Shown: positions 21,003 to 38,956 of the stretch, piece after piece | Numbering within the stretch: the first letter of the stretch is position 1 | How the letters are laid out: each line of letters begins with the position of its first letter | Source of the DNA: Pedobacter sp. | GTDB lineage: Bacteria; Bacteroidota; Bacteroidia; Sphingobacteriales; Sphingobacteriaceae | NCBI GenBank assembly: GCA_041652175.1 | Contig: JBAZHY010000001.1 | Location: forward strand, 305 to 39,260 | Direction: 5' to 3' | DNA: 38,956 nucleotides | Translations under genes and position numbers: made by a program | Notes under the pieces: model-generated | What the model saw: the letters and a program-made list of their open reading frames with translations, nothing else | Databases searched by the model: none | Told to the model about the DNA's origin: nothing

Positions 21003-21129
21003 TGAGCGTTACCCAATCCCTGCAAAGTGTTGCACGATCAGACTAAGGCAGATACTTGCTAAAAGAAAATTACTTATAGAACGACTGACCAATGACCGAG
21101 AGAGAGATAAGGAGATTATACCAACGTGA
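20941..21129 (+). CDS. Small basic hypothetical protein (start probably later, MMEKQK)
   Basis: Bridges portal and head-morphogenesis genes, overlapping both. Confidence 0.45.
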   Translation: MPQVQCLMMEKQKTSLEIIANERYPIPAKCCTIRLRQILAKRKLLIERLTNDRERDKEIIPT

Positions 21130-21874
21130 TCTGAACCGCTATCTGAAATTCGCTTACCGTGAATTTTACAAAGGGCTTAAAGAACAGGTCAGTCCAGCTT
21201 TAGAAAACCCATACGCTCAAGTATCAGCCGAGCCAATGATACGGGCATATAATCGGGTCTATGAATATGCCGGAACAGATCAAGCTAAAAAAGAATATGC
21301 AAGGCTAAAAAAACAGGAAGGCACAAAAGTAGAATTACAATTACTGTTAGCTACTTGGCGTTTATGGATGCGTGATTATGTAGTTAACAATTTAGCTACC
21401 ATGATTACCAATGTTTCACAAAACACTCAGGATGCGATAAATAGAGCCTTGCAGGATGGATTGTATGAGGGCGATACTCAATATCAATTAGTTAATCGAA
21501 TTTACCGTTATACTTTGGGGGAGGTTGGCAGAGTTCGTTCCCGATTGATTGGCAGAACGGAAGTTACCAGAGCGACCAACGTAGGGAAGCGAAAATCAGC
21601 AGACGATTATTCCAATCTGAATAACGGAATAACCATGTATAAGAAATGGATTCACGTTCCACAGAAAGAGAATAGAGATACTCACGTTGCAGAGGGAAAC
21701 AAGCCTCCGATTCCGATTGATCAGGATTTTGAGGTGCTGAATCAACAGACTGGTGGCATAAATCTAATGGCACAACCGGGGGATCCTACGGCAGGGGCAT
21801 CACAGACGTGCAATTGTGGATGTACGGTAATTTATATGTCTGAAAGATTTGCACGTAGAAATTATAAAATGTAA
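21092..21874 (+). CDS. Head morphogenesis protein, Mu gpF/SPP1 gp7-like
   Basis: RSRLIGRTEV.RA.N, KKW, R.TH, PGDP...NCGC. Confidence 0.9.
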   Translation: MTEREIRRLYQRDLNRYLKFAYREFYKGLKEQVSPALENPYAQVSAEPMIRAYNRVYEYAGTDQAKKEYARLKKQEGTKVELQLLLATWRLWMRDYVVNNLATMITNVSQNTQDAINRALQDGLYEGDTQYQLVNRIYRYTLGEVGRVRSRLIGRTEVTRATNVGKRKSADDYSNLNNGITMYKKWIHVPQKENRDTHVAEGNKPPIPIDQDFEVLNQQTGGINLMAQPGDPTAGASQTCNCGCTVIYMSERFARRNYKM

Positions 21875-21910
21875 ATTAGTGCTTTCATCATTAGTGTTTG
21901 GTTTATGGGG

Positions 21911-21943
21911 ATCGGGTGTCTTGGGAGAGCATCCGATTTTTTT
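21911..21943 (+). terminator. Intrinsic terminator
   Basis: ATCGGGTG...CATCCGAT stem followed by a T-run. Confidence 0.7.
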
Positions 21944-21951
21944 GTATTTAA

Positions 21952-21972
21952 TGTTACAAAGTGTTACATTTA
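21952..21972 (+). promoter_or_regulatory. TGTTACA direct repeats overlapping a TACATTTA -7-like box
   Basis: TGTTACA at 21952 and 21962 (10-bp period); third copy at 22003. Confidence 0.55.
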
Positions 21973-21976
21973 CATT

Positions 21977-22201
21977 ATGGCAAAGAAAAGAATATTTGTT
22001 AATGTTACAGATAACCAATTAAAGGTTATTGAAAAATTAAGGAATCAAGAAAATAGAAGTCAGTCATACATTGCAACTATGATTTTTAATGATGGTTTTA
22101 AGTTAGTAGAGAAAAATGAAATTGGAATATCAGGCGATGGGTTTATTGAATTTCAGGAACGGTTAAAAAATCATCCGTTTTATAAAGAAAAAAATAAATG
22201 A
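21977..22201 (+). CDS. Ribbon-helix-helix (CopG/Arc-like) regulator
   Basis: Start moved to MAKKRIFVNVTDNQLKVIEKLRNQENRSQSYIATMIF: beta-strand, helix, xSxS, helix. Confidence 0.7.
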   Translation: MAKKRIFVNVTDNQLKVIEKLRNQENRSQSYIATMIFNDGFKLVEKNEIGISGDGFIEFQERLKNHPFYKEKNK

Positions 22202-24480
22202 ACACAAAGCTATTAAGGCTTAACGATCTTGAACGCTCCCCGTTATGGGATACAGGTAACAGGAAATTTTTACACAGATGGAAAGAACACAATCAAATAT
22301 TTACTAACGAAATGGCAAAAGCTAAAAAACCCAAAGGTTTAAAAATTCTGATTACTACCGTATTTGACCGTAACTATAAAGAAGCTGGCAAAACAATGTT
22401 TAATACTATCCGAAGATATACGGATTGCACAAACATAGATTTTAAAGTCATTACGGCTGATACCGAAGTATTAAAAGAGTTTGGAGCGGATAACTGCCAT
22501 TTTATAACCGATGAGATAAAAGCAAGATATGCAAATGTAAAATATAGTACTGATTTGCCGGAGAATAAGTATGCGACTTCGTGGTATCGGTACGAAATAT
22601 TTAACATGACCGGATATGATCGGGTTTTGTGTATTGATTGCGATTGCATTTGTATTCAGGACATTTCCTATCTGTTTTCAGAGGAATTAAGCGAATTTGA
22701 TTTGATTTCAGTTGAGGATCATATTGTATCAAAGTGCTTTATGGCTCATGTTCCTGCTTTAGAACGTCAGGGTCTCAGATTTGAAAAGCTAATGCAACGG
22801 ATGAAAGAAGGCAAGATTGATATTCAGCCTGCTTTATTGGTTGCTAATAAATCAATAGTGAATAACAAATGGTATAGCAAGTTACTTGATTATGCTAATT
22901 CAGCAGACTTTTCATATTCGATTGATGAGGGGGTATTGAATGATTTTATCTACATGGAAGGTCTTAAGATTAAGTTACTTCCTTTAGAATGGGATTATCA
23001 AGACTGTTATGAGATTCATTGCAGGACACTACCAATACCTACTAATCCAATTATTGTTCATTGTCAGGAATCTAAGCCTTTTAAAAAGACTAAGCAACAA
23101 ATAGACAAACGAATGCACAAATGGCATGATAGATGGCATGAAGAAGCTAAACCGATTCAAGACAGAACGATTGTTGCTATTATCATTTGGAACAGGTTCG
23201 AGAATCTTAAATTATGGCTTAACTGTTGGAATCAATGCGATAGAGCCGGTGCGGAATTAGTTATCGTTCACAACTTAGAACAAGATAATGACAGATATGC
23301 TCAGATATGTAGCGATTACGGTGTGAAGTATGTTCCGCGTGAAAACAAAGGCTTTGACATAGGGGCTTTTCAGGATGTATGCAAAGAACGATTAAAAGGA
23401 TTCCCGAATAAATGGGATAATTTAATATGGATTACAGACGACTGCATACCAATGTCTAAAACTTTTGTAAGCCAGTATTTAACTGAATTAAATGCAGGGA
23501 ACTTACCTTGTTATGAGATTTCAGATGTCGTAAAAAGGCATGTAAGGACAACAGGATTCTCAGTAACTAAAGAAATAGCTAAGCAATTGACATTCCAGAA
23601 AGACCAGATTGAAAACCGCGAAGACTGCTATCACTTTGAGCATAAAAGCAAAACGGCTTTATATGAGCAGATTATAAGCATGGGGAAAACGCCTGTAATG
23701 CTTTCCAAAGACCTGAAAGAATCACCATTATGGGATGAGGGGGTAAGAGGCCATTTAGATTTGAAAGGAAAACATGAACAGGTATTCCAGCCACTTCCAA
23801 AAGGAATTACTAAATTAGAAAATGATAGTATTCTTGACCGGTTGGCAATTAAACATAAATGCGATAAGTCATCACGTTATCACAACTATTGCGTAAAGTA
23901 TGATAAGCTACTTTCGCATTATCGAGATACATTTACATCTATTCTTGAAATAGGTGTTGCACAAGGGCAGTCAGTTAGCATGTGGGCTGATTACTTTTCA
24001 AGGGCTATCATACACGGGGCTGATATTTCAAAAGCATCTGAATCATGTGAGGCATATTCTGACCGGATTAAGTTTCATTTGCTTGACCAAAGGAATTTGG
24101 CGCAATTAAAAAACATTGAACAGTTTTCACCGTTTGACTTAATTATTGACGATGGGAATCATTTCTGGATGGAACAGATTCAAACATTCCAAACCTTATT
24201 CCCCTATCTTAAATCGGGAGGTATTTACATTGTTGAAGATACCACTACATCCTACTGGAGAGAGTACAAAAATGCAAGGATTTCACCTGTTGAATATTTT
24301 AAAACCTTTGCAGATGATGTTCACTTAAAAGGGCGTAGGGGAACTGTTCCGTTAAATGCACCGGCTGAATTTGGAGATTGGGCAAAAGGATGGCACCGGA
24401 GAGAGGACTGTCATACAGGTGTACCGTTATTTGATTCGGTTCAATTTATGAATGGATTTATAGTAATTACGAAAGCATGA
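22198..24480 (+). CDS. Trimodular protein: GT8-like glycosyltransferase, RgpF-like putative glycosyltransferase, class I SAM (MycE-like) sugar O-methyltransferase
   Basis: YDRVLCIDCDC, DEGVLN, IVHC...KP (GT8); RENKGFDIGAF, WITDDC, HVRTTGF (RgpF-like, less certain); DKS..HNY...Y, ILEIGV, IIDDGNH, LKSGGIYIVED (O-MTase). Confidence 0.8.
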   Translation: MNTKLLRLNDLERSPLWDTGNRKFLHRWKEHNQIFTNEMAKAKKPKGLKILITTVFDRNYKEAGKTMFNTIRRYTDCTNIDFKVITADTEVLKEFGADNCHFITDEIKARYANVKYSTDLPENKYATSWYRYEIFNMTGYDRVLCIDCDCICIQDISYLFSEELSEFDLISVEDHIVSKCFMAHVPALERQGLRFEKLMQRMKEGKIDIQPALLVANKSIVNNKWYSKLLDYANSADFSYSIDEGVLNDFIYMEGLKIKLLPLEWDYQDCYEIHCRTLPIPTNPIIVHCQESKPFKKTKQQIDKRMHKWHDRWHEEAKPIQDRTIVAIIIWNRFENLKLWLNCWNQCDRAGAELVIVHNLEQDNDRYAQICSDYGVKYVPRENKGFDIGAFQDVCKERLKGFPNKWDNLIWITDDCIPMSKTFVSQYLTELNAGNLPCYEISDVVKRHVRTTGFSVTKEIAKQLTFQKDQIENREDCYHFEHKSKTALYEQIISMGKTPVMLSKDLKESPLWDEGVRGHLDLKGKHEQVFQPLPKGITKLENDSILDRLAIKHKCDKSSRYHNYCVKYDKLLSHYRDTFTSILEIGVAQGQSVSMWADYFSRAIIHGADISKASESCEAYSDRIKFHLLDQRNLAQLKNIEQFSPFDLIIDDGNHFWMEQIQTFQTLFPYLKSGGIYIVEDTTTSYWREYKNARISPVEYFKTFADDVHLKGRRGTVPLNAPAEFGDWAKGWHRREDCHTGVPLFDSVQFMNGFIVITKA

Positions 24481-26399
24481 AAATAGTACTATTCGGAGGC
24501 TCAGGTATCTTAGGAACCGAAATGCAGAAACATTATGACCTGAATTACCCATCAAGGGCAGAGGTCAATATCACTAATATGTCTGATATCCTGATTTACT
24601 TAAAATCAATTAGACCGGATGTGGTTATCAATGGGGCAGCGGTTACGGATAACAGGATAGTTGAAAAGAATCCAATTTCTGCGATTGATACGAATATTAT
24701 AGGTTCTGCAAACTTAGCCATTGCCTGTTTATCGCTTAATATCAGATACGTTTATATTTCGACTGATTACGTTTATCCTGGGGATCATGGAAACTATCAG
24801 GAATCAGATCCGATAATGCCGTTCAATTTGTATTCATGGACAAAGTTAGGAGGCGAATGTTCAGCAGTAGCGGTTAAGAATCATTTAATTATCCGTACTT
24901 CATTTGGTGCAAATACGTTCCCATATAAAGAGGCTTTTACCGATAAATGGACTTCAAAGGATTATGTAGATCAGATTGCGCCTTTGATATATGAGGCTTC
25001 AATAAGTCCATTGACAGGAGTTTTAAATTTGGGGACAGAACGCAAGACATTGTACGATCATGCCTCAGAACGCACTGAAGTAAGCCCAGTTAAGATTTCA
25101 GATACTAACTTTGCAACGCCTTACGATACTTCATTGAACTTGCAACGATGGCAAAATTACAAAGCTGATAAGTCAATTGCAAAGCCTCACACAAATTGCA
25201 GGGTTTGCGGTTCGGATAAGTTGGTAAAATATCTTGATTTGGGATTAATGCCATTAGCAAACAATCTTGAATCAAAGGCAGTTGATGCAAAATCAAAAGA
25301 GCGTTTCCCATTACAAGTCATGTTCTGTACTGATTGTTCACTATCTCAGTTATCCGTAGTTATAGACCCTGAAAAAATGTTCAGTTATTACACGTATCGG
25401 AGTAGTGTAAATAAGCCGTATGTAGATCATTGCAGACAAATGGCAAATGATTTAAGATTATACGAGATTGACGAAAACTCATTTCATATCGACATTGCCG
25501 GGAATGATGGAACACTATTAAAAGAGTTCAAATCAGTACACAACCATAAAGTCCTAAACATTGACCCTGCATCAAACCTGACTGCAATATCAGAGGCAAA
25601 CGGAATCCCTGCAATATCTGACTTTTGGAGTCAGGACGTTGCCATTGATGTAGTGAATACATACGGAAACGCAGACTTAATCACGGCAACCAACGTATTC
25701 GCTCATTTGGATGATGTCAAAGGGTTTTTGCAGGCTTGTGAATATACTTTGTCATATAATGGAATATTGGTAATTGAAAACCCGTACCTGATAGACTTCA
25801 TTGAAAATATGGAGTTTGATACGGTTTACTTTGAGCATGTGACTTATTGGAGTTTAACGCCGCTTGTAGAGTTATGTAAGCATGTAGGTTTAACCGTTAT
25901 CGATGTTCAAAAGCAAGATATTCACGGTGGTACAATGAGGTACATAATTGCTAAGGATGAATCTTATAAACAATCTGAACAGGTAAGTAGCCTATTAATT
26001 TCTGAAATTGAATATACTTATTTATCAAAATATACTGATTGGTCAGCAAAGGTTTATGATTTGGTAGGCAACTTTTCGGCTCAATTACTTGCACTTAAGA
26101 AGTCAGGTAAAAAGATTGCAGCGTTTGCGGCTTCGGCAAAGGGCAATACCTTGCTAAACATGGCAGGCATGAACACGGATATAATTGATTTTATTGCAGA
26201 CGATACGCCTGAAAAGATTGGCAAGTTTTCACCGGGTACAGGGATTCCTATTGTCGGCATAGGGGAAGTTAAAAAGCATGAACCTGATTACATAGTTATA
26301 TTAAGTTGGAATTTTACAGATGCAATCATTGAAAGATTAAGACCTATTTACAAAGGCAAGTTTATCGTGCCTATACCTGAATTTAAAATTATAGAATGA
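24477..26399 (+). CDS. Fusion of RmlD-like NDP-4-keto-sugar reductase and NDP-hexose C-methyltransferase
   Basis: GGSGILG, YISTDYVY, YSWTK (RmlD/SDR); CRVC...CTDC Zn site, YTYRSS, DIAGNDG, FDTVYFEH, IHGGTMRY, ASAKG, LSWNF, FIVPIP (TcaB9/NovU/TylC3 family). Confidence 0.88.
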   Translation: MKIVLFGGSGILGTEMQKHYDLNYPSRAEVNITNMSDILIYLKSIRPDVVINGAAVTDNRIVEKNPISAIDTNIIGSANLAIACLSLNIRYVYISTDYVYPGDHGNYQESDPIMPFNLYSWTKLGGECSAVAVKNHLIIRTSFGANTFPYKEAFTDKWTSKDYVDQIAPLIYEASISPLTGVLNLGTERKTLYDHASERTEVSPVKISDTNFATPYDTSLNLQRWQNYKADKSIAKPHTNCRVCGSDKLVKYLDLGLMPLANNLESKAVDAKSKERFPLQVMFCTDCSLSQLSVVIDPEKMFSYYTYRSSVNKPYVDHCRQMANDLRLYEIDENSFHIDIAGNDGTLLKEFKSVHNHKVLNIDPASNLTAISEANGIPAISDFWSQDVAIDVVNTYGNADLITATNVFAHLDDVKGFLQACEYTLSYNGILVIENPYLIDFIENMEFDTVYFEHVTYWSLTPLVELCKHVGLTVIDVQKQDIHGGTMRYIIAKDESYKQSEQVSSLLISEIEYTYLSKYTDWSAKVYDLVGNFSAQLLALKKSGKKIAAFAASAKGNTLLNMAGMNTDIIDFIADDTPEKIGKFSPGTGIPIVGIGEVKKHEPDYIVILSWNFTDAIIERLRPIYKGKFIVPIPEFKIIE

Positions 26400-26400
26400 T

Positions 26401-26571
26401 ATGAGCGATATTAAGTACTGTCCTGAATGTGGCGAAAAGGCTTATATATACCGGCCAATGTATAGAAAAATAAAGCAGACGTTTTTTACTTATAAACAAT
26501 GGAGTTGCTACCAATGGGAGTGTCTGAAGTGTAAGCATAAATCAGATGAAATTTGTGAAAGAACTATTTAA
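26401..26571 (+). CDS. 56-aa zinc-ribbon protein
   Basis: Read by hand: MSDIKYCPECGEK...WECLKCKHKS; fills the gap exactly. Confidence 0.65.
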   Translation: MSDIKYCPECGEKAYIYRPMYRKIKQTFFTYKQWSCYQWECLKCKHKSDEICERTI

Positions 26572-27102
26572 ATGATTATCCACTTTATAACCCCATTTGC
26601 ACGAGATAAAAACATAGGCAGAGAATATAACTCTCGCATATCAGAACTTCCTGATGACTGCTATATCTGTCTCCGAGATCAGGACACTTTACCATTACGA
26701 CCAGACTTTGGCGCACAAATCTATCAGGTAATTGAAGCTAATCCTGACTTTCAAATTATCGGTTGCATGACTAACCGATTAAGAGCGCCGTATCAATTAG
26801 TAAACGGCAAGTTTAATTCAGATTCCGACATTTCAAATCATATTGAAATCGCTAATCAGCAATGGGATAAGTACGGTACTAAAGTAACAGAAGTCCCAAT
26901 GGTTGCCGGGATGTGCATGATATTTCATAAGTCTGTTTGGGATGAAGTAAGGTTCAAAGAGAATTCAATATTCTTTGATAAAGAATTCTGCAATTCAGCA
27001 CGTAAAAAGTTTAAGATCGGAGTAGCTAAAGGTGTGTATTTATTTCACTTGTATAGATGGGGGCAAAATAATCCGTTTACCTATGTTAAGCATTTATTAT
27101 AA
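26572..27102 (+). CDS. Minimal GT-A (GT2-like) glycosyltransferase
   Basis: NIGREYN, YICLRDQD (DxD), VAGMCMIFHKSVW..V.F.E, FDKEFC, VYLFHLYR. Confidence 0.7.
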   Translation: MIIHFITPFARDKNIGREYNSRISELPDDCYICLRDQDTLPLRPDFGAQIYQVIEANPDFQIIGCMTNRLRAPYQLVNGKFNSDSDISNHIEIANQQWDKYGTKVTEVPMVAGMCMIFHKSVWDEVRFKENSIFFDKEFCNSARKKFKIGVAKGVYLFHLYRWGQNNPFTYVKHLL

Positions 27103-27318
27103 TTATACGCATTTAAAACAATGTTTGCAATACGGTGCTTCAAAACTATTAGCGGGCACAATAAACTCATGTTTGCATTTTAGGTTTATATAAACTCCTG
27201 CATTGTTTTCAATTACATATAATACATCAATAGGCAACCTATGTTTTTCAGGATCATGATTTATAAAAACTTTATCGTGTAACCCTATTTTGCATTTTCT
27301 TTTTACTTCTTCTGTCAT
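27103..27318 (-). CDS. Small protein with C-terminal Cys/His cluster
   Basis: CKHEF...YCKHC; ATGA overlap. Confidence 0.6.
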   Translation of the reverse strand: MTEEVKRKCKIGLHDKVFINHDPEKHRLPIDVLYVIENNAGVYINLKCKHEFIVPANSFEAPYCKHCFKCV

Positions 27319-27602
27319 AAGTTACCATATTTAGGATAAGTGTAAGTAACCCGTGCTGTTTTTAAATTTTTTATAAAATCATCCCGGTCAAGACCAATTT
27401 CGACTTTGCTTATGTTTCTAATAGCATTCTTTAATTTTTCTTTATTTTTTGGGTTTAACATCTCAGCAATAATAATATTTGATGCCGGATCTTTTAAAAA
27501 TTCATTAGATACTTTTATATACAATACTTTCCTTTCTCGCTCAAAAAACTTCTTAAGTTTCTTATGTAGCTTAATTTGCGATTTCCTTATTTTTTTACCC
27601 AT
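27315..27602 (-). CDS. Basic hypothetical protein
   Basis: Middle gene of the antisense three-gene unit. Confidence 0.6.
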   Translation of the reverse strand: MGKKIRKSQIKLHKKLKKFFERERKVLYIKVSNEFLKDPASNIIIAEMLNPKNKEKLKNAIRNISKVEIGLDRDDFIKNLKTARVTYTYPKYGNL

Positions 27603-27775
27603 GTTACTTCATTTTGTTCATATCCAAATTTGGCAAACCATCTCTTAATAGTACTTTCCTTTAGTTCTCCATTTATAAACCTACGCTTAAACAAAAACGC
27701 TGCCTGAGCGGACATATACGGAGCGTACCATTTATGCTCTGATGTTATTAGTTTAAATAGTTCTGGTGTTGTCAT
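27587..27775 (-). CDS. Small hypothetical protein, possible DNA binder
   Basis: First gene after the minus-strand promoter. Confidence 0.65.
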   Translation of the reverse strand: MTTPELFKLITSEHKWYAPYMSAQAAFLFKRRFINGELKESTIKRWFAKFGYEQNEVTWVKK

Positions 27776-27785
27776 AATTCTATAT

Positions 27786-27816
27786 CAAAGCTACGCATAC
27801 AGTTCTGTATATCAAA
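27786..27816 (-). promoter_or_regulatory. Minus-strand promoter TTTG-N19-TAGCTTTG with palindrome ATACAG-TT-CTGTAT in the spacer
   Basis: Consensus boxes at canonical spacing; palindrome at 27797-27810. Confidence 0.75.
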
Positions 27817-27856
27817 ACATTCTAAGCGTATTTTTTTAATATTTAATTTTACGTCA

Positions 27857-28519
27857 ATGAATCAGCTAACGAAAGACCACAATTCCGAAATTAAGGAGCT
27901 TGACGAAAAGAAAGGCTACGTTGAGGCTATTGCTAATGCTTATAATAATGAGGATAGCGATGGGGATATCTCGCATCCTGGTTCATTCATGAAAACTGTT
28001 TCTGAGGGGCGTAAAAAGCTAAGGGTTTATAAGAATCATGATACAAGGCTTTTGGTCGGAGTACCTAAAGAGTTAAGGCCTGAACATCCTGATGGGTTGT
28101 TTACAGGTACTCAGTTCAACATGGAAACGGACTTAGGCAAGGATATGTTTAACGACATAAAGCTAATCCACTCAAACGGTCAGGAAGCTGATTTGTCAAT
28201 AGGCTATCAAGTTGTAAGACGTGACCAGAAAAACCCAAAGATAATTACTGAGTACAATCTCAGAGAATATTCATTCTTGACAAGCTGGGGAGCAAATCCA
28301 AACGCGGTTGTTTTAGGTGCAAAGTCAAGTGCTTCCGATATTATTGACCATTTAACTAAAATGTATAACCTTCCTTATTCTGATTCAAGATTAATGGAAG
28401 TAGAAAAAATACTAAAATCACTCACAACAGCGCCGGACAATTCCACCCTGAAAGATGAGCCGATTGATGCGAAACAATTATTAACTCACATTCAAAACTC
28501 ATTCCGATATGGAAATTAA
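27857..28519 (+). CDS. Prohead protease, HK97 type
   Basis: DSDGDI..PGSF.KT, YKNHD, LSIGY, LREYSFLT.WGANP.A. Confidence 0.92.
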   Translation: MNQLTKDHNSEIKELDEKKGYVEAIANAYNNEDSDGDISHPGSFMKTVSEGRKKLRVYKNHDTRLLVGVPKELRPEHPDGLFTGTQFNMETDLGKDMFNDIKLIHSNGQEADLSIGYQVVRRDQKNPKIITEYNLREYSFLTSWGANPNAVVLGAKSSASDIIDHLTKMYNLPYSDSRLMEVEKILKSLTTAPDNSTLKDEPIDAKQLLTHIQNSFRYGN

Positions 28520-29798
28520 AGAAATAACTGAAGCTATTGACTTAGCTTCTAAAGGCCTGAAAGATGGCGTAGAGGGTGCAAAAACACAAGCAACTGATGC
28601 TTTAGCTGAGGCTAAAAAAGCACTTGAGGCACTTGAGGCAAAAGCCACAAAAGAGGATATTACTGCTATCAAAGATGATTTGACAGCGAAAGTAAAAGAA
28701 TTGCAAGATCAGCATGATGCCCTGTCTACTAAAATGAATAAGAAAACAGAAACAACCGGAAAACTTAAATCATTTGAGCAGGCATTCACTGAGGCTTATA
28801 TGGAGCAAAAGGACACTATCAAAGCAATCATTGCAAATGATGGCAAACAGGATGGCCCTTTGGTATTCGATTTAAAAGAAGCAGTAACAATTGGCGACTT
28901 CAACACGATTGAGGCGGTAGGTTCTGAAAGCAATTACAGCTTAACTCAGAATACAGGTATTATCAGCCCTATCCGTAAACGTCAATTGACTTACTTGCAA
29001 AACGTATCAACTGGGTCAATGGCTAAACCTTATGCGATGTGGATTGAGGAGTTGGATGAGCAGGGCACTCCAATCTTTATTGGTGAGGGCGACACTAAAA
29101 CATTTTTGTCAGTTCGTTATGAAGAGCGTCAAATGGTTGCTAAAAAGATCGCTGTTTACGGCAAGGTTACAACCGAGTTTATGGATGACTTGCCACAACT
29201 GATGTCATACGTTCAGAACAACTTGATGAAACGTGCCGATATTGCAACTGAAACTGATTTGTTTTCGGGGCCTGGAACAGGCGACAACCTGAAAGGACTT
29301 GATGAGTATGCAACTGCATTCACAGGTTCTACAATGGCCGGGACTATTACCGATGCAAATGAGTTTGACGTTTTAATCGCTGCAATCCTGCAAGTTAAAA
29401 AAGCGTTTGGTATTCCTACAGGATTCTTTGTAAATGAGGGATTCCTTGCTAAAATGATTTCGACTAAAACCACCGTAGGGGAGTACACTAATCCAACTGC
29501 GTTTTTAGGTCGTGACGCTCAGGGTTACACAACTCTGCAAGGTGTTCGATTGATCGGAACTAACGCTTTAGATTCTTTAGGAATTGACTTCATTGGTGGT
29601 GACTTATCGGTTATCAATGTACTATTTAGACAAGGCATGAGGGTTCAGATTGGATTGGATGGAAACGATTTTATCAATAACAAGAAAACTATATTGTTAG
29701 AGCAGAGATTGGTTCAGTTCGTATCTGCTAATGATACTCAGGTGCTTGTTAAAGGTGATTTTGCAACTGCAAAGGCATTGCTTGAGGCTACAACCTAA
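28509..29798 (+). CDS. Major capsid protein, HK97 fold with N-terminal delta domain
   Basis: Coiled-coil N-terminus, FIGEG..K, KKIAVYGKVTTEFMDD, G.GTGDNLKGL. Confidence 0.93.
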   Translation: MEIKEITEAIDLASKGLKDGVEGAKTQATDALAEAKKALEALEAKATKEDITAIKDDLTAKVKELQDQHDALSTKMNKKTETTGKLKSFEQAFTEAYMEQKDTIKAIIANDGKQDGPLVFDLKEAVTIGDFNTIEAVGSESNYSLTQNTGIISPIRKRQLTYLQNVSTGSMAKPYAMWIEELDEQGTPIFIGEGDTKTFLSVRYEERQMVAKKIAVYGKVTTEFMDDLPQLMSYVQNNLMKRADIATETDLFSGPGTGDNLKGLDEYATAFTGSTMAGTITDANEFDVLIAAILQVKKAFGIPTGFFVNEGFLAKMISTKTTVGEYTNPTAFLGRDAQGYTTLQGVRLIGTNALDSLGIDFIGGDLSVINVLFRQGMRVQIGLDGNDFINNKKTILLEQRLVQFVSANDTQVLVKGDFATAKALLEATT

Positions 29799-30032: not shown

Positions 30033-30618
30033 GATAGTAACTGATTTAACCGAAGAACCTGTAAGCCTGCAATATTGTAAGGACTTTATGGAGATTGATT
30101 TTAGCGACTTTGATACTTTAATTACCAGACTAATTAAAGCGGCTCGTATTTCCTCTGAAAAGTTCACAGGCTTGGCATACGGGAAAAAAGAGATCCAATT
30201 AGTCAGCAATCAGTATAAAGTTGATTTGCCTTACGCTCCGTTTAAAGAGATTATCAGTTTAGTAGATAAGGATGGAAACGCTATAAGTTCAACTGATTAT
30301 AATCTATTCGGGTATGATACGCCACAAATTACGGTTGGTGTACCTTGCAGACCTGCAAATTATGACCCGTATTGGGATATTTTAGGTACTGCCTTGCGAA
30401 CTTACAACGAATGGACTTTGAACTATTATACAGGCTATTATACTCAGACAGGTTCAGTAGTTACCAATACATTACCAGAAGATTTAAAATCAGCTATCTG
30501 TATGAGAGTTGAAACGGCTTTTAAGTACAGAGCAGATGCAACTAATGAGCAAGTAAATAAAGCTATCAATACAAGTACTGAATTAGAGTTTAGTTACCGT
30601 TTAAATCCGATAGTATAA
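30019..30618 (+). CDS. Head-tail connector protein
   Basis: EPVSL..CK.FM.ID..D.D.LI..LIKAAR...EKFTG; LPEDLKSAI. Confidence 0.85.
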   Translation: MFQSKIVTDLTEEPVSLQYCKDFMEIDFSDFDTLITRLIKAARISSEKFTGLAYGKKEIQLVSNQYKVDLPYAPFKEIISLVDKDGNAISSTDYNLFGYDTPQITVGVPCRPANYDPYWDILGTALRTYNEWTLNYYTGYYTQTGSVVTNTLPEDLKSAICMRVETAFKYRADATNEQVNKAINTSTELEFSYRLNPIV

Positions 30619-30956
30619 TGACCGGGAATTATGATCAGCGAGGTACTTTTATTGACTTTCAGGATATATCTGATGGTGCAGGAGGTACAACACCTGAGCG
30701 TATTGAATTGTTACGAACTTTCATTGCTATTGACCAAATCCGATCACGTTCTGATTTAGAACAGATGGAAAGGCAATTAGAGCAGATTTATAGATTAAGG
30801 ATTAAGTATAGAGAAGCATTTACACCAACTAACTTAATGTATCTCGAATGGAACGGTTATCAATATACTATCAATTCAGTTGAATTACAAGGCACAAGGC
30901 ATAAAAGAGAATACACTATGTTAATAGTTCAGGACAGACCAATTGAAACTACGTAA
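30618..30956 (+). CDS. Head closure/head-tail adaptor protein
   Basis: SDGAGG, YRLRIKYR, WNG.QY.I.SV; synteny. Confidence 0.8.
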   Translation: MTGNYDQRGTFIDFQDISDGAGGTTPERIELLRTFIAIDQIRSRSDLEQMERQLEQIYRLRIKYREAFTPTNLMYLEWNGYQYTINSVELQGTRHKREYTMLIVQDRPIETT

Positions 30957-31432
30957 TGGCAAATGCAACGGTTAAAATACAGGGATTAAAGTCACTTGAA
31001 AATCGGTTAAAAAAGCTAAGCGAAAAGACTATTGCTGATGTAAAATTGCAAGTGTTGGATAGTGCAACGCAGATTGAGCAAGATGCTATAAGGGATGCCC
31101 CTAACTTCTTGCTGATTATGGGTAAAAAATCAGATCCAGAATCAATTAGCGTTGCTCAGTTCATAAATAAAACGCCTTTAAATAATGGATTTGCATTTGA
31201 CGTAGGGATTGAGGCAAGTAATGAGATCCCGATTTATGTAGAATTTGGAACAGGTACGGATGCAGCATCATACGTGCCTACATTGCCACAAGAAATACAA
31301 CAAGCTGCAAGGAAGTTTTATAAAAACGGTAAGGGTCGCATAATGAAACAACCATATTTAATACCAGCTTTCTTAAAAGAGAGTCCATTATTTATTGCAG
31401 AGTTAAAAAAGATACTAAAGAACAATGTTTGA
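30956..31432 (+). CDS. HK97 gp10-like tail completion protein
   Basis: I.GLKSL...L, YVEFGTG, QPYLIPAF. Confidence 0.85.
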   Translation: MANATVKIQGLKSLENRLKKLSEKTIADVKLQVLDSATQIEQDAIRDAPNFLLIMGKKSDPESISVAQFINKTPLNNGFAFDVGIEASNEIPIYVEFGTGTDAASYVPTLPQEIQQAARKFYKNGKGRIMKQPYLIPAFLKESPLFIAELKKILKNNV

Positions 31433-31883
31433 AGTACAAACCGAATTAAGGCAGTCATACTTAGCCAAACTTTCCACAATAGAAATATCGGGAACGGTAA
31501 TACCATTCTACGATGAGAGAGTTGGTGCCGAGCCTGCACAAATCGGAACTGCTATTGCTTACGGGATTATCACTAATCAAACTGCATCCGATATAATGAT
31601 AAAGTGCGGTTTTTATCAGGATTGTTCTATTACAATTGACATAGTGACTAAGTTCCCAAAGCAAAAAGGGGGGAAACTACTTTCAGAACAAATATCAAAT
31701 GAGGTTCTGCAATTACTTAGAACTGGCAATACTTTAGATTACCCGACTATGGATAACTTTCAGATTGTAACGGTTCGCAAGACCTTAGACAGAGGACTGA
31801 CCGAGGACAATGTAGCTGATACGGTATATCGCAAAATATTAATATTCACACATAAAATTAAACAGATTTCAACAACCACTTAA
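31425..31883 (+). CDS. Tail terminator protein (putative)
   Basis: Position before the tail tube, size, IPFYD and SITIDIVT motifs. Confidence 0.7.
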   Translation: MFEVQTELRQSYLAKLSTIEISGTVIPFYDERVGAEPAQIGTAIAYGIITNQTASDIMIKCGFYQDCSITIDIVTKFPKQKGGKLLSEQISNEVLQLLRTGNTLDYPTMDNFQIVTVRKTLDRGLTEDNVADTVYRKILIFTHKIKQISTTT

Positions 31884-31894
31884 AACAAATAATT

Positions 31895-32326
31895 ATGGCA
31901 ACTTTTGTAAATGGGGATGATAGCATCCTGTACATTCTAAGAAATTCGGAATACGTTCCAATCGCTTGCTTAACTTCAAGCGGAACGGCTGAAACCGTAA
32001 CTTTTAATGAGGTTCAAACTAAATGCGATCCTGGAGTAATTCAGGTAACGCCAAACGCTTACAGTTACAACAAACCTTTAGAGGGTCTGCTTACAGATAC
32101 AACCTCAGTTGGTGGCGATACTGCTTTGGCGTCTTGGGATTACCTGAAAGGCTTAATGAGGGCAAAAACTTTGATTTACTGGAAAGAAGAAATCGGCAAT
32201 CCTGCATTTGTTACTGAATACGGCGAGGGTTATCTTGAGAACTTGGAATTGACTTCACCGGCAGGCGAGAATATCACTTTCACAGGTTCAATCAAAGGTA
32301 ACGGAGAGATTTCACAAACAACCTAA
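31895..32326 (+). CDS. Major tail tube protein
   Basis: NGDDSILY..PIACLTS...G.GYLENLEL.SPA.E.ITFTGSI.G.G; synteny. Confidence 0.85.
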   Translation: MATFVNGDDSILYILRNSEYVPIACLTSSGTAETVTFNEVQTKCDPGVIQVTPNAYSYNKPLEGLLTDTTSVGGDTALASWDYLKGLMRAKTLIYWKEEIGNPAFVTEYGEGYLENLELTSPAGENITFTGSIKGNGEISQTT

Positions 32327-37711: not shown

Positions 37712-38956
37712 ATGAAAAAATTATTATTCTTACTATTATTCCCTTTATGGGTACAGGCTCAAACGAATGTAACCGTTCGTAGAGATGCAACAACAGGAAT
37801 AGTCAGCACGTTTTTGAATCCGAATTACTTAGATACATTACCTCGTGCGCGATTAACGGGAATAACCAATGGTCAATCATTAATATGGAATAGCACTTTA
37901 AAAATGCTTACACCATATACTTTGCCTAGTGTTCCCATAGGCTTGCAAGACAGCTTAACCAAAAAAGCTAACCGAACCTTTGACAACGTAGCTTCGGGTG
38001 CGATTGCTAAGGCCAAAGTAGACACTTCAGCAACAGGATTACAAACTGTTTCAAACTTCTTCCCTAAAGGAGATACGAGATATTTAAGAGGTACAGGGAC
38101 AGGAGTAGCATCCGTAACTGGCACGGCAAATCAAATAACAGTTACAGGGACATCAACACCGGTTTTGAGTATACCCAGCACTTTTATTGCACCGGGGAGT
38201 ATTGCGGCAACAACGGGGGTTAGCGGAACAACTGGCACATTCGCGGGAGACGTAACAGCAACAGGGCTGTTCTCAAACACAACATACAATTCTTCCGGTA
38301 CTCTTGCGGCTAATTTTGCTAACTCTAACGCATCTGGGTATGGGGGAAAAATCAGAGGGGGTTCAGGATCTTTGTATTCATTTTTAGTTACCGATTATAA
38401 CGATGCGTCATTGCTTAATATTTCTCCGGGTGTAGGTGCAACATTTGGACTCAGGCTTAAAAGTCCGGATTTTGATTGGATAAGGCAAAGCAATTTCGGT
38501 TATGCTTCAGTTTATAAAACGCAGATAATAGGGGCAACAACAGGTAATCAAACCATAGCTTTTGGCGTTGATCCGATTTCAAATGTGGGTGCCACATTTT
38601 CTGGAAACGGCTCAGAGTATATGTTCAGAAACGCGGGGAAGTTTATTACCCCAAATTCAGGCAATACAGATTATACCACTTTACTGTCTTGGAATAGTTC
38701 GGGGGGTGTTCTATATCCTACATTGTCTGGGTCAGGGAATGTTATCACGGGGGCAGACAATACAGGTTTATTAGGTAAGATTACTATCGGGTCAGGACTT
38801 TCCTTAACATCTGGGGTATTAACAGCGACAGGCGGTAGTTCAGGAAGCGTTACAACAGCAGGCGGAACATCAGGCAAAATAGCGAAATTCACATCTGCTT
38901 CAAATATTGAAAACAGTATTATGACAGAAGCAGGTTCGGATATTGCAATTGCTGGT
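37712..38956 (+). CDS. Tail fibre/adhesin-like protein with N-terminal signal peptide (3'-truncated, at least 415 aa)
   Basis: Absent from the ORF track; read by hand and open to the window end: MKKLLFLLLFPLWVQA-QTNV..., G/S/T-rich, IGSGLSLTSGVLTATGG, IAKFTS.S.I.NS. Confidence 0.85.
   Translation, partial: MKKLLFLLLFPLWVQAQTNVTVRRDATTGIVSTFLNPNYLDTLPRARLTGITNGQSLIWNSTLKMLTPYTLPSVPIGLQDSLTKKANRTFDNVASGAIAKAKVDTSATGLQTVSNFFPKGDTRYLRGTGTGVASVTGTANQITVTGTSTPVLSIPSTFIAPGSIAATTGVSGTTGTFAGDVTATGLFSNTTYNSSGTLAANFANSNASGYGGKIRGGSGSLYSFLVTDYNDASLLNISPGVGATFGLRLKSPDFDWIRQSNFGYASVYKTQIIGATTGNQTIAFGVDPISNVGATFSGNGSEYMFRNAGKFITPNSGNTDYTTLLSWNSSGGVLYPTLSGSGNVITGADNTGLLGKITIGSGLSLTSGVLTATGGSSGSVTTAGGTSGKIAKFTSASNIENSIMTEAGSDIAIAG

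Follow-up and report, generated by a model that had tools for sequence, protein, structure and literature searches.

A predicted virion glycosylation cassette with a branched-deoxysugar module among the head genes of a small tailed phage

Why should a small tailed phage carry, among its head genes, enzymes of the kind that make and transfer methylated branched sugars? The question is raised by a stretch of 38,956 nucleotides (the window: positions 305 to 39,260 of contig JBAZHY010000001.1, Pedobacter sp. assembly GCA_041652175.1), which is nearly the whole of contig C1 of a binned genome. Its gene order (terminase, portal, MuF, cassette, protease, HK97-type capsid, connectors, tail) is identical in Cellulophaga phage phi12:1. 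The cassette lies between the MuF gene and the prohead protease gene, an interval shared with three small reverse-strand genes (27103-27775), and consists of genes for a ribbon-helix-helix (RHH) regulator (21977-22201) and for proteins of 760 (22198-24480), 640 (24477-26399), 56 (26401-26571) and 176 (26572-27102) amino acids; features are on the forward strand unless stated otherwise. A sequence-only reading of this locus had described the position of the cassette and its enzymes, and both are confirmed by profiles, PDB matches and motifs. We consider it probable that the predicted cassette glycosylates the phage particle. The 176-residue transferase, termed GT176, would prime C-terminal threonines, and the other enzymes would extend the glycan with a C-methyl 6-deoxysugar and O-methylate it.

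The evidence for a virion target comes from the ends of structural proteins. C-termini were inspected after glycans had been reported on the C-termini of mycobacteriophage capsid and tail-tube proteins (PMC12619734, in the text available). Thr-Thr ends occur in four of the 58 open reading frames (ORFs) of the window (binomial p 2e-4), and profiles identify three of the four products as virion proteins, position the fourth. These candidate acceptors are the major capsid protein (28509..29798; PF05065, phrog_10), which ends ...EATT (codons 29790-29795), the head closure protein (30618..30956; phrog_25; ...IETT), a protein at the tail-terminator position (31425..31883; phrog_27535, function unknown; ...STTT), the role of which is suggested by its place between the neck and tail-tube genes, and the major tail (tube) protein (31895..32326; phrog_1407, E 6e-20; ...SQTT). 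The C-termini of capsid and tail-tube proteins presumably face outward. Virion proteins had already been proposed as the likely target in the sequence-only reading, on the argument that proteins without transmembrane segments would not act at the cell surface. No transmembrane stretch was found in the cassette proteins (highest 19-residue hydropathy 1.41), but this argument is weak because soluble GT8- and RgpF-type enzymes act on lipid-linked glycans at the inner membrane; it is the threonine ends that support the target.

The candidate protein-priming enzyme is GT176 (26572..27102; phrog_14179, E 1e-57), the constant last sugar gene of the slot. Its model has a minimal GT-A fold (predicted local distance difference test score, pLDDT, 95.9), and it carries D36-x-D38 and H159. 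The first row of a wide fold search was STIV A197 (PDB 2c0n; Z 11.5, root-mean-square deviation 5.3, 140 residues aligned), likewise a small viral GT-A protein; with 11% identity, and tied with others within 1 Z unit, it resembles GT176 in fold only. Matches to ppGalNAc-T2, ColGalT1 and A197 are all tied with other GT-A proteins and are not counted towards an acceptor that is a protein. GT176 has 142 cultured-phage matches, and the groups tallied among them (four single-record groups are unnamed) include no Mycobacterium group that would tie it to the transferases of Che8, Corndog and Myrna.

Threonine ends accompany GT176 far beyond the window. TT ends were counted among distinct ORFs: the 107 loci with GT176 have 90 in 1361, the 71 loci with the C-methyltransferase (C-MT) of the cassette but no GT176 have 7 in 1038, and the 14 capsid loci lacking a cassette have 2 in 218. 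Families were checked for 59 of 147 Thr-ending ORFs, hand-picked with TT favoured and hence a biased sample: 47 encode virion proteins (21 capsid, 16 major tail, 7 head closure and 3 other), the rest being four of unknown families, seven without a match and one primase/helicase. When capsids were clustered at 93% and 29 clusters with short flanks left out, 38 of the 42 clusters with GT176 ended in Thr (32 in TT) and none of the 11 without it. Eight cultured phages, chosen among the best capsid matches to five lineages with GT176, were added; their capsid ends were unread before the choice, though match ranges hinted at differing ends. GT176 is absent from the whole records of these phages (the control, phi12:1, matched), and none of the eight capsids ends in Thr, so that the count becomes 0 of 19 without GT176 against 38 of 42 with it. 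The tree with the cultured rows contains seven independent pairs on starred branches, none reversed (median p 0.016, range 0.016-0.031), and capsids that are 81-91% identical nevertheless differ at the end, for example ...TFQQTT versus ...SFSSGS. A control search with locus L243 returned only Helsingorvirus capsids and no GT176-free control (L numbers denote the loci compared). Virion glycosylation through GT176 is, in our judgement, highly probable.

Several loci bear on the same subject. GT176 with one or two further transferases, and capsids ending in TT, are found in L228 (1639-3560 and 8237-9391), L234 (9992-11913 and 17025-18233) and L235 (5484-7667 and 10608-12545), which represent a compact two-gene version of the system; their capsids are 81-91% identical to those of the cultured enterobacterial phages ENT39118, mEp235 and FSL SP-016. 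Where a Stealth-like gene (PF11380, a weak match; L065:7803-8522) occurs without GT176, capsids end in Ser in five of six loci (ATS, NAS, NVS; the exception is IEA), the set including L023, L070, L078, L081 and L082. L076 has both the Stealth-like gene and GT176, and its capsid ends in Thr. The Stealth-like gene may encode another priming enzyme, one that goes with a Ser tag. In several GT176 phages PTT is also the end of large proteins from the tail region that match no PHROG (L063:17014-19206; L272:15309-18374).

What glycan would be built on these threonines? Up to three glycosyltransferase domains had been counted at the outset, and three of GT-A type are present (GT8-like, RgpF-like and GT176). 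The 760-residue protein begins with a remnant of about 35 residues of a deleted second RgpF-like domain (22198..22302), which aligns to the end of the same protein's RgpF-like domain; the extra domain is complete in L006, L010 and L011. The GT8-like domain (22336..23151; PF01501, 29 bits against a cut-off of 24.3) has D147-x-D149, D243-E244 and H288, motifs that are invariant in all six aligned homologues. The RgpF-like GT-A domain (23164..23787) is named after a weak match to Pfam family PF05045 (RgpF, E 0.009), and its RxNxGxDxG and TDD motifs are invariant or nearly so across 51 rows. Seven of these 51 relatives match RgpF (E up to 0.05, best 0.0027) and seven match GT2; matches in the Atlas are mostly unnamed viral clusters, and comparison of the domain profile with the PDB gave no relative (best E 0.5). 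As the usual neighbour of the C-MT, this domain is the candidate transferase of the branched sugar. The protein ends in a MycE/TylE-type sugar O-methyltransferase (O-MT) domain (23827..24480; 8ia9, E 2e-18; 3ssm, E 3e-17). Its EIG motif for S-adenosylmethionine (SAM), its DDGxH base and its ED metal ligands (D652, H655, E680, D681) align with those of the macrolide enzymes and are invariant in six of six homologues, while one 7-residue loop and the N-terminal part of the macrolide enzymes are missing.

The 640-residue protein is a fusion of a reductase and the C-MT. Its first 228 residues (24477..25160) form an RmlD-like NDP-4-keto-6-deoxyhexose reductase with GxxGxxG (7-13), S95/T96 and Y119-xxx-K123, motifs retained in all five aligned sequences. 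The nine best PDB matches of its profile are all RmlD (E 9e-27 to 3e-19); its score with the RmlD equivalog TIGR01214 (about 285 positions) is 99.5 bits, short of the 224 needed, and the domain appears to be RmlD-like, not RmlD proper. A bifunctional epimerase/reductase identity of this short reductase was rejected as weak (plant 4qqr, E 2e-6, against 9e-27 for RmlD). The C-MT (25176..26399), of TcaB9/MtmC type, scores above the cut-off with PF08421, PF13489 and PF08484 and aligns over its full length (about 400 residues, with zinc, SAM and C-terminal domains) with MtmC (4rv9, E 7e-74) and TcaB9 (3ndi, E 2e-56). Residues C241, C244, C284, C287, H410, Y451, E453 and H454 align with TcaB9 and are invariant in seven of seven sequences; we take the cysteines to bind zinc and the His/Tyr/Glu/His set to form the active site. 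The matched PDB references are C3 enzymes only, no C5 enzyme being among those compared. The following 56-residue Cys-pair (zinc-ribbon-like) ORF (26401..26571) has a sub-threshold Pfam match only and is accessory: it contains no sugar-enzyme domain and is absent in L002, where the C-MT gene overlaps that of GT176. The earlier picture of four tightly coupled genes, which together carry the sugar enzymes, holds for the coupling (from the RHH gene on, the junctions are an ATGA overlap, a second ATGA overlap, a 1-nt gap and a 0-nt gap); the 56-residue gene adds no such enzyme.

That the virion is glycosylated with some other sugar has to be considered at this point: a C5-methylated (noviose-like) or keto sugar, one from a GDP, CDP or UDP donor, or the product of a C-MT that acts mainly as a ketoreductase. 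MtmC has two activities and is able to carry out reduction in place of methylation (PMC10269268, in the part available). Compared with RmlD, the reductase domain lacks about 60 residues; the bin, 81% complete, yielded no RmlC; and a C5 enzyme was not among the solved relatives compared with the C-MT. On the other side stand the alignment of the presumed zinc ligands and His/Tyr/Glu/His set with TcaB9, the separate RmlD-like domain fused to the C-MT, and the best reductase matches, which are dTDP-rhamnose reductases. We regard another sugar as improbable.

For the preferred reading, a C-methyl 6-deoxysugar on the virion, we propose the following pathway. The host would supply dTDP-4-keto-6-deoxyhexose, and the use of a host 4-keto-6-deoxy NDP-sugar, already suggested earlier, fits the presence of rmlB in the binned genome. 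An rmlD-like gene is there too; rmlC was not found there, which is uninformative at 81% completeness, and rmlA, rmlB, rmlC and a flippase had no match among the window ORFs scanned. The bin is Bacteroidota-like (52 SusC matches, 23 over the cut-off), binning being no proof of the phage's host. The fused enzyme would C-methylate this intermediate with SAM, most likely at C3, and then reduce C4 with NAD(P)H, with activity, position and stereochemistry all predicted. Since genes for 2-deoxygenation are missing, the product would be a 6-deoxy-3-C-methylhexose donor, presumably evalose-, virenose- or nogalose-like; the mycarose analogy of the sequence-only reading is poor, as neither a 2,3-dehydratase nor a 3-ketoreductase is present. 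GT176, which is seen to co-occur with the tag, would prime the threonines in the cytoplasm. The GT8-like and RgpF-like domains would then elongate the chain, in a presumptive order, and the RgpF-like domain, which is linked to the C-MT, would take the branched sugar. Finally, the O-MT would cap or decorate the chain. It is fairly likely that the branched sugar sits on the GT176-primed glycan.

The slot in which the cassette lies is variable. Relatives with 73-94% identical capsids have other sugar genes between MuF and protease (GT2 enzymes, methyltransferases of the FkbM and TylF kinds, a cupin), and in L002, L015, L016, L017, L019, L020, L022, L208 and L209 alike the sugar genes end with GT176; the slot of phi12:1 contains a methyltransferase and a 407-residue fusion with GT176 at its end. 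The slot is hypervariable and resembles a serotype locus in its behaviour: the candidate priming enzyme and the tag are kept and the chain-building genes are exchanged. Its left border is the MuF-like head morphogenesis gene (21092..21874; phrog_2468, E 1e-33), as in L002, L016, L017, L022 and phi12:1. The right border is a conserved 62-residue gene (27587..27775, reverse strand; phrog_26076), found also in L002, L015-L017, L019 and L020 and divergent from the prohead protease gene (27857-28519; phrog_80). The protease itself is swapped in L015 (4659-5327), L017 and L022 (about 30% versus 87-95% identity), with capsids still 73-82% identical.

The C-MT module, by comparison, is mobile. A profile scan (80 kept of 93 viral loci with the C-MT, and further loci) gave 63 clusters at 90% besides the window. 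A labelled virion gene lies within 3 kb of the C-MT in 44 of them and within 5 kb in 50, a labelled replication gene within 3 kb in two. Nearby are the RgpF-like domain (within 1.5 kb) in 39 clusters, the reductase in 20, the O-MT in 15, GT8 in 12, GT176 in 11 and all five in two; labels were taken from window proteins and 130 of 377 scanned cluster representatives, so that unlabelled neighbours are undercounted. In unrelated phages the module sits in the terS/terL interval, after the capsid gene or before the portal gene.

Could this be passenger DNA from a host polysaccharide locus, or serve a small-molecule or anti-defence role, with threonine ends that are structural or inherited? Head-module slots tolerate morons, the reverse-strand genes vary here, and cellular loci of Woeseiaceae contain related C-MT, reductase and O-MT genes. 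However, in comparison with the nearest relative, L008, the ratio of nonsynonymous to synonymous substitution rates (dN/dS; simple Nei-Gojobori, dS near saturation) is 0.039 for GT8, 0.032 for the RgpF-like domain, 0.028 for the O-MT, 0.038 for the reductase, 0.055 for the C-MT and 0.147 for GT176, against 0.040 for portal and capsid, values that indicate an intact cassette under purifying selection, functional by that measure. A FastTree of viral C-MT rows together with 80 cellular loci, the best of 561, places the window C-MT in one starred set of 15 rows, every one viral, and another of 28 rows, 25 of them viral; bin contigs carrying phage genes, three in number, are counted as viral here. 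Because these clades are phage-dominated, the C-MT is no fragment lately taken from a host locus. The sequence-only reading had named, as the case against itself, a decaying piece of host DNA that other phages do not conserve; this is contradicted by selection, phage clades and many phage loci. Several unrelated structural proteins, moreover, have threonine ends, and nearly identical capsids from phages that lack GT176 do not. A passenger origin is very unlikely.

Further C-MT loci and relatives of the 760-residue protein deserve mention. A GT8, RgpF-like and O-MT protein 63-71% identical to that of the window occurs with an unrelated capsid type in L009 (9218-12145), L112, L114, L115 and L116; a MptE/Maf-like domain is fused or adjoining, a sulfotransferase-like gene lies downstream and the capsids have no Thr end. 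A separate phage C-MT clade (L089, L091, L092, L096, L097, L098) sits directly 3' of a different capsid gene; next come two paralogues that carry no annotation and a GT2-like gene, and an RgpF-like domain is absent. In L004 (7464-12728), a phage with a crAss-like capsid (phrog_11589), the RgpF-like domain, O-MT and reductase/C-MT lie in the structural region. L125-L144 (Woeseiaceae and related) form a neighbouring C-MT clade, mostly with O-MT and reductase-like genes nearby, and the Woeseiaceae loci are a possible cellular counterpart of the module.

How is the cassette expressed? An intrinsic terminator, a bulged hairpin with T7G (21910..21944), precedes it, as the sequence-only reading had stated. 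A simple scan did not pick it up; it is supported by its folding score (z -3.08, one of 200 shuffles as good) and by L002, in which another stem occupies the same place and the GGGAGA core and T-run are common to both. No terminator structure was found 3' of GT176. The promoter-like box of the sequence-only reading is weakly supported. The candidate, TTTG-N20-TACATTTA (21941..21976), differs by one mismatch from what we take to be the Bacteroidota promoter consensus, and a sigma-70 scan was at chance level (38 matches versus 36.4). It overlaps two TGTTACA repeats 10 nt apart, with a third copy at 22003; three of the four TGTTACA/TGTAACA copies of the window fall here, the motif having been picked post hoc. 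The repeats are a plausible candidate operator for the Arc-like RHH regulator (74 residues, 21977..22201; phrog_3431, E 1.2e-7), the gene of which is likely leaderless. An alternative 98-residue start at 21905 was rejected, as that frame begins just before the hairpin and reads through the terminator. L002 carries a different RHH protein at the same site (PF07878, E 3e-8) and has not kept the promoter and TGTTACA motif. In L016 and L022, neither terminator nor RHH gene is present, and the first transferase directly follows MuF, to which the slot is coupled; self-regulation, as first proposed, may apply at most to this phage and L002. In the short divergent interval between the 62-residue and protease genes (27776-27856) and at the RHH gene, a TAnnTTT(G/A) box lies 12-18 nt upstream of the three starts, which suggests very short leaders.

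The separate regulation also bears on a division of targets, in which GT176 would act on the virion and the other enzymes would modify, from the cytoplasmic side, a glycan of the host surface (O-antigen, capsule or protein glycan), blocking superinfection or receptor binding. Besides the terminator and RHH gene in this phage and L002, 52 of the 63 clusters have the C-MT module but no GT176, the Pfam names of GT8 and RgpF are those of cell-envelope families, and the authors of phi18:1 proposed lipopolysaccharide (LPS) modification for a homologous gene (PMC11946311, in the text available). Yet integrase and repressor had no match in the window ORFs, the only unassigned frame of integrase size being tail-fibre-like, and lysogeny genes were not identifiable in phi18:1 (same source). 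The module lies among virion genes in 44 of 63 clusters, the C-MT gene overlaps that of GT176 in L002, and the slot is coupled to the head operon in L016 and L022. A division of this kind is unlikely. The tail-fibre-like frame (Gly/Ser/Thr-rich, no family match; 37712-38956 and 3-1145) appears to span the contig junction and a short N gap; it is likely a tail fibre and a possible further glycan acceptor. The contig ends share a 17-base overlap, so the phage genome is likely circular, with about 39.2 kb.

A further target would be phage DNA, hypermodified with a methylated glycan against restriction or CRISPR. This is brought to mind by phi92, where gp166, the GT176 homologue, adjoins a TAGT-like gene (PF20691, E 7e-5, below the cut-off) near DNA polymerase. 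In the window, however, TET/JBP, hydroxymethylase (or another enzyme making hydroxymethyl pyrimidines) and DNA polymerase had no Pfam or PHROG match among the ORFs scanned (a few ORFs below 80 residues lay outside the scan), and the adenine methylase encoded by the phage is of the ordinary D12 class. Replication genes labelled near the C-MT are rare, as noted above, and the threonine tags would be left unexplained. DNA as the target seems extremely unlikely.

Glycosylation of the particle by the whole cassette, the reading we prefer, has to be weighed against several observations that speak for caution. Four of the 42 GT176 capsid clusters lack a Thr end (ISS, GTA, NAS, VVK; the VVK case sits in a locus with broken frames), and of the 29 clusters set aside because their flanks were short, four have a Thr end although GT176 was not seen. 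Metagenomic rows alone, in a quick tree, yield two to four independent pairs, which is not significant. In phi92 the capsid ends ...TTA and the GT176 homologue has the replication-side location described above; in the present phage the terminator stands between the cassette and the head genes that precede it. The RgpF-like domain stays below the PF05045 cut-off (15.2 bits versus 25), so that its name is a label only, and a fold of the 760-residue protein from a 6-row alignment (pLDDT 36.5) was not used. GT176 is near the C-MT in only 11 of 63 clusters and the reductase in only 20, and the evidence from the tags consequently bears directly on GT176 and not on the branched sugar. The branched sugar on a GT176-primed chain is the weakest link, as most C-MT modules would need other priming enzymes. 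Glycan and enzyme activities are predicted from sequence alone.

Glycosylation of mycobacteriophage virions was reportedly described by Freeman et al. in 2023 (Cell Host Microbe). The glycans are made by tandem glycosyltransferases beside an O-methyltransferase (PMC11600133) and are treated further in PMC12582341, as far as the text of both is available. By analogy, the cassette may work in a similar way. These too are small tailed phages with several soluble phage-encoded glycosyltransferases, in cluster O also with an O-methyltransferase, and the proteins modified there at the C-terminus are those that end here in hydroxyl residues (capsid EATT, tail tube SQTT), again according to the text available. 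There the glycans were measured, whereas here they are read from genes. The present phage further differs in its likely Bacteroidota host, its own nucleotide-sugar tailoring (C-MT and reductase), the position of its cassette inside the head module, and the Thr-Thr tag, which extends to the head closure protein and to one more tail protein.

Helsingorvirus (Cellulophaga phages phi12:1, phi18:1 and phi17:1) is closest in gene order and slot. Its cassette consists of a PF13578 methyltransferase and a 407-residue glycosyltransferase (gp39-gp40 in phi12:1), the C-terminal half of gp40 being a GT176 homologue (38%), and lacks C-methyltransferase, reductase, GT8 and RgpF-like domain; the capsid ends ...SGT and the tail tube ...VGT. 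The statement that no such system was known in a small Bacteroidota siphophage is qualified by this simpler cassette in the same slot of cultured siphophages. In phi18:1 the glycosyltransferase of the structural module was read as acting in LPS, DNA or regulatory glycosylation, with no virion interpretation, and the neighbouring methyltransferase was counted among DNA methylases, in the part available of PMC11946311.

Among Stephanstirmvirinae, the phi92 glycosyltransferases gp163-166 include GT176 homologue gp166 (42%), and an RmlD homologue (37%) is present. This phage differs in its size (148 kb), in the location of the cluster near replication and lysis genes and in having no C-MT match; its decoration protein ends ...FTS and its sheath ...STVSS. 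With its four tandem transferases including the GT176 homologue, phi92 (L198:9809-15246, L013:12001-15177) offers a cultured test case for virion versus DNA glycosylation. Gtr-type serotype conversion, which relies on a flippase, a bactoprenol transferase and a membrane transferase of a temperate phage, is a poor likeness, as there are no transmembrane segments in the cassette and no integrase match.

Actinomycete branched-deoxysugar pathways (MtmC/MtmTIII for D-mycarose, TcaB9 for D-tetronitrose, MycE/TylE) share with the cassette a homologous C-MT with zinc site and catalytic residues; the nogalose and noviose pathways are further comparisons. Methylation by MtmC is followed by 4-ketoreduction by MtmTIII (PMC10269268), and MycE-type O-methyltransferases use Mg and a His base (PMC9539859), in the sections available. 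Here, in contrast, genes for 2,3-dehydratase, 3-ketoreductase, aminotransferase and aglycone are absent, the transferases are of GT-A type, the C-MT is fused to an RmlD-like domain, and the acceptor is likely a protein-linked glycan. Searches of the open PMC and bioRxiv text available, including PMC12801897 and with subscription journals outside their scope, gave no report of a phage sugar C-methyltransferase, of a branched sugar made by a phage, of the pairing of this tag with GT176 or of virion glycans measured in phages of Bacteroidota, and nothing relevant on phi92 glycans, nogalose enzymes or C-terminal threonine O-glycosylation.

Seen more broadly, the balance tips slightly towards a glycan locus of tailed phages that resembles a serotype locus, in which GT176 reads a Thr-Thr tag from Bacteroidota phages to HK97-like phages and outer-chain modules are exchangeable, the module here being a mobile one for an antibiotic-style C-methyl-branched, O-methylated deoxysugar. 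In the open literature covered, as far as its text is available, mycobacteriophages are the only tailed phages for which virion glycosylation has been measured. A candidate priming enzyme and a two-residue tag can now be named, and they are directly testable in culture: the pair was checked in Cellulophaga phi12:1, and the enzyme is present in phi18:1 and phi17:1. If the proposal is true, capsid ends would predict glycosylation from sequence, and the roles assigned to the phi18:1 glycosyltransferase and to the 'DNA methylase' next to it would have to be reconsidered. The slot would show selection in the wild on particle surface chemistry by grazers, glycosidases, proteases or host sensors. Compact enzymes for making branched sugars, and for glycosylating proteins site-specifically at the C-terminus, would be obtainable from phages, and the particle of this phage would wear a virus-made coat of branched sugar.

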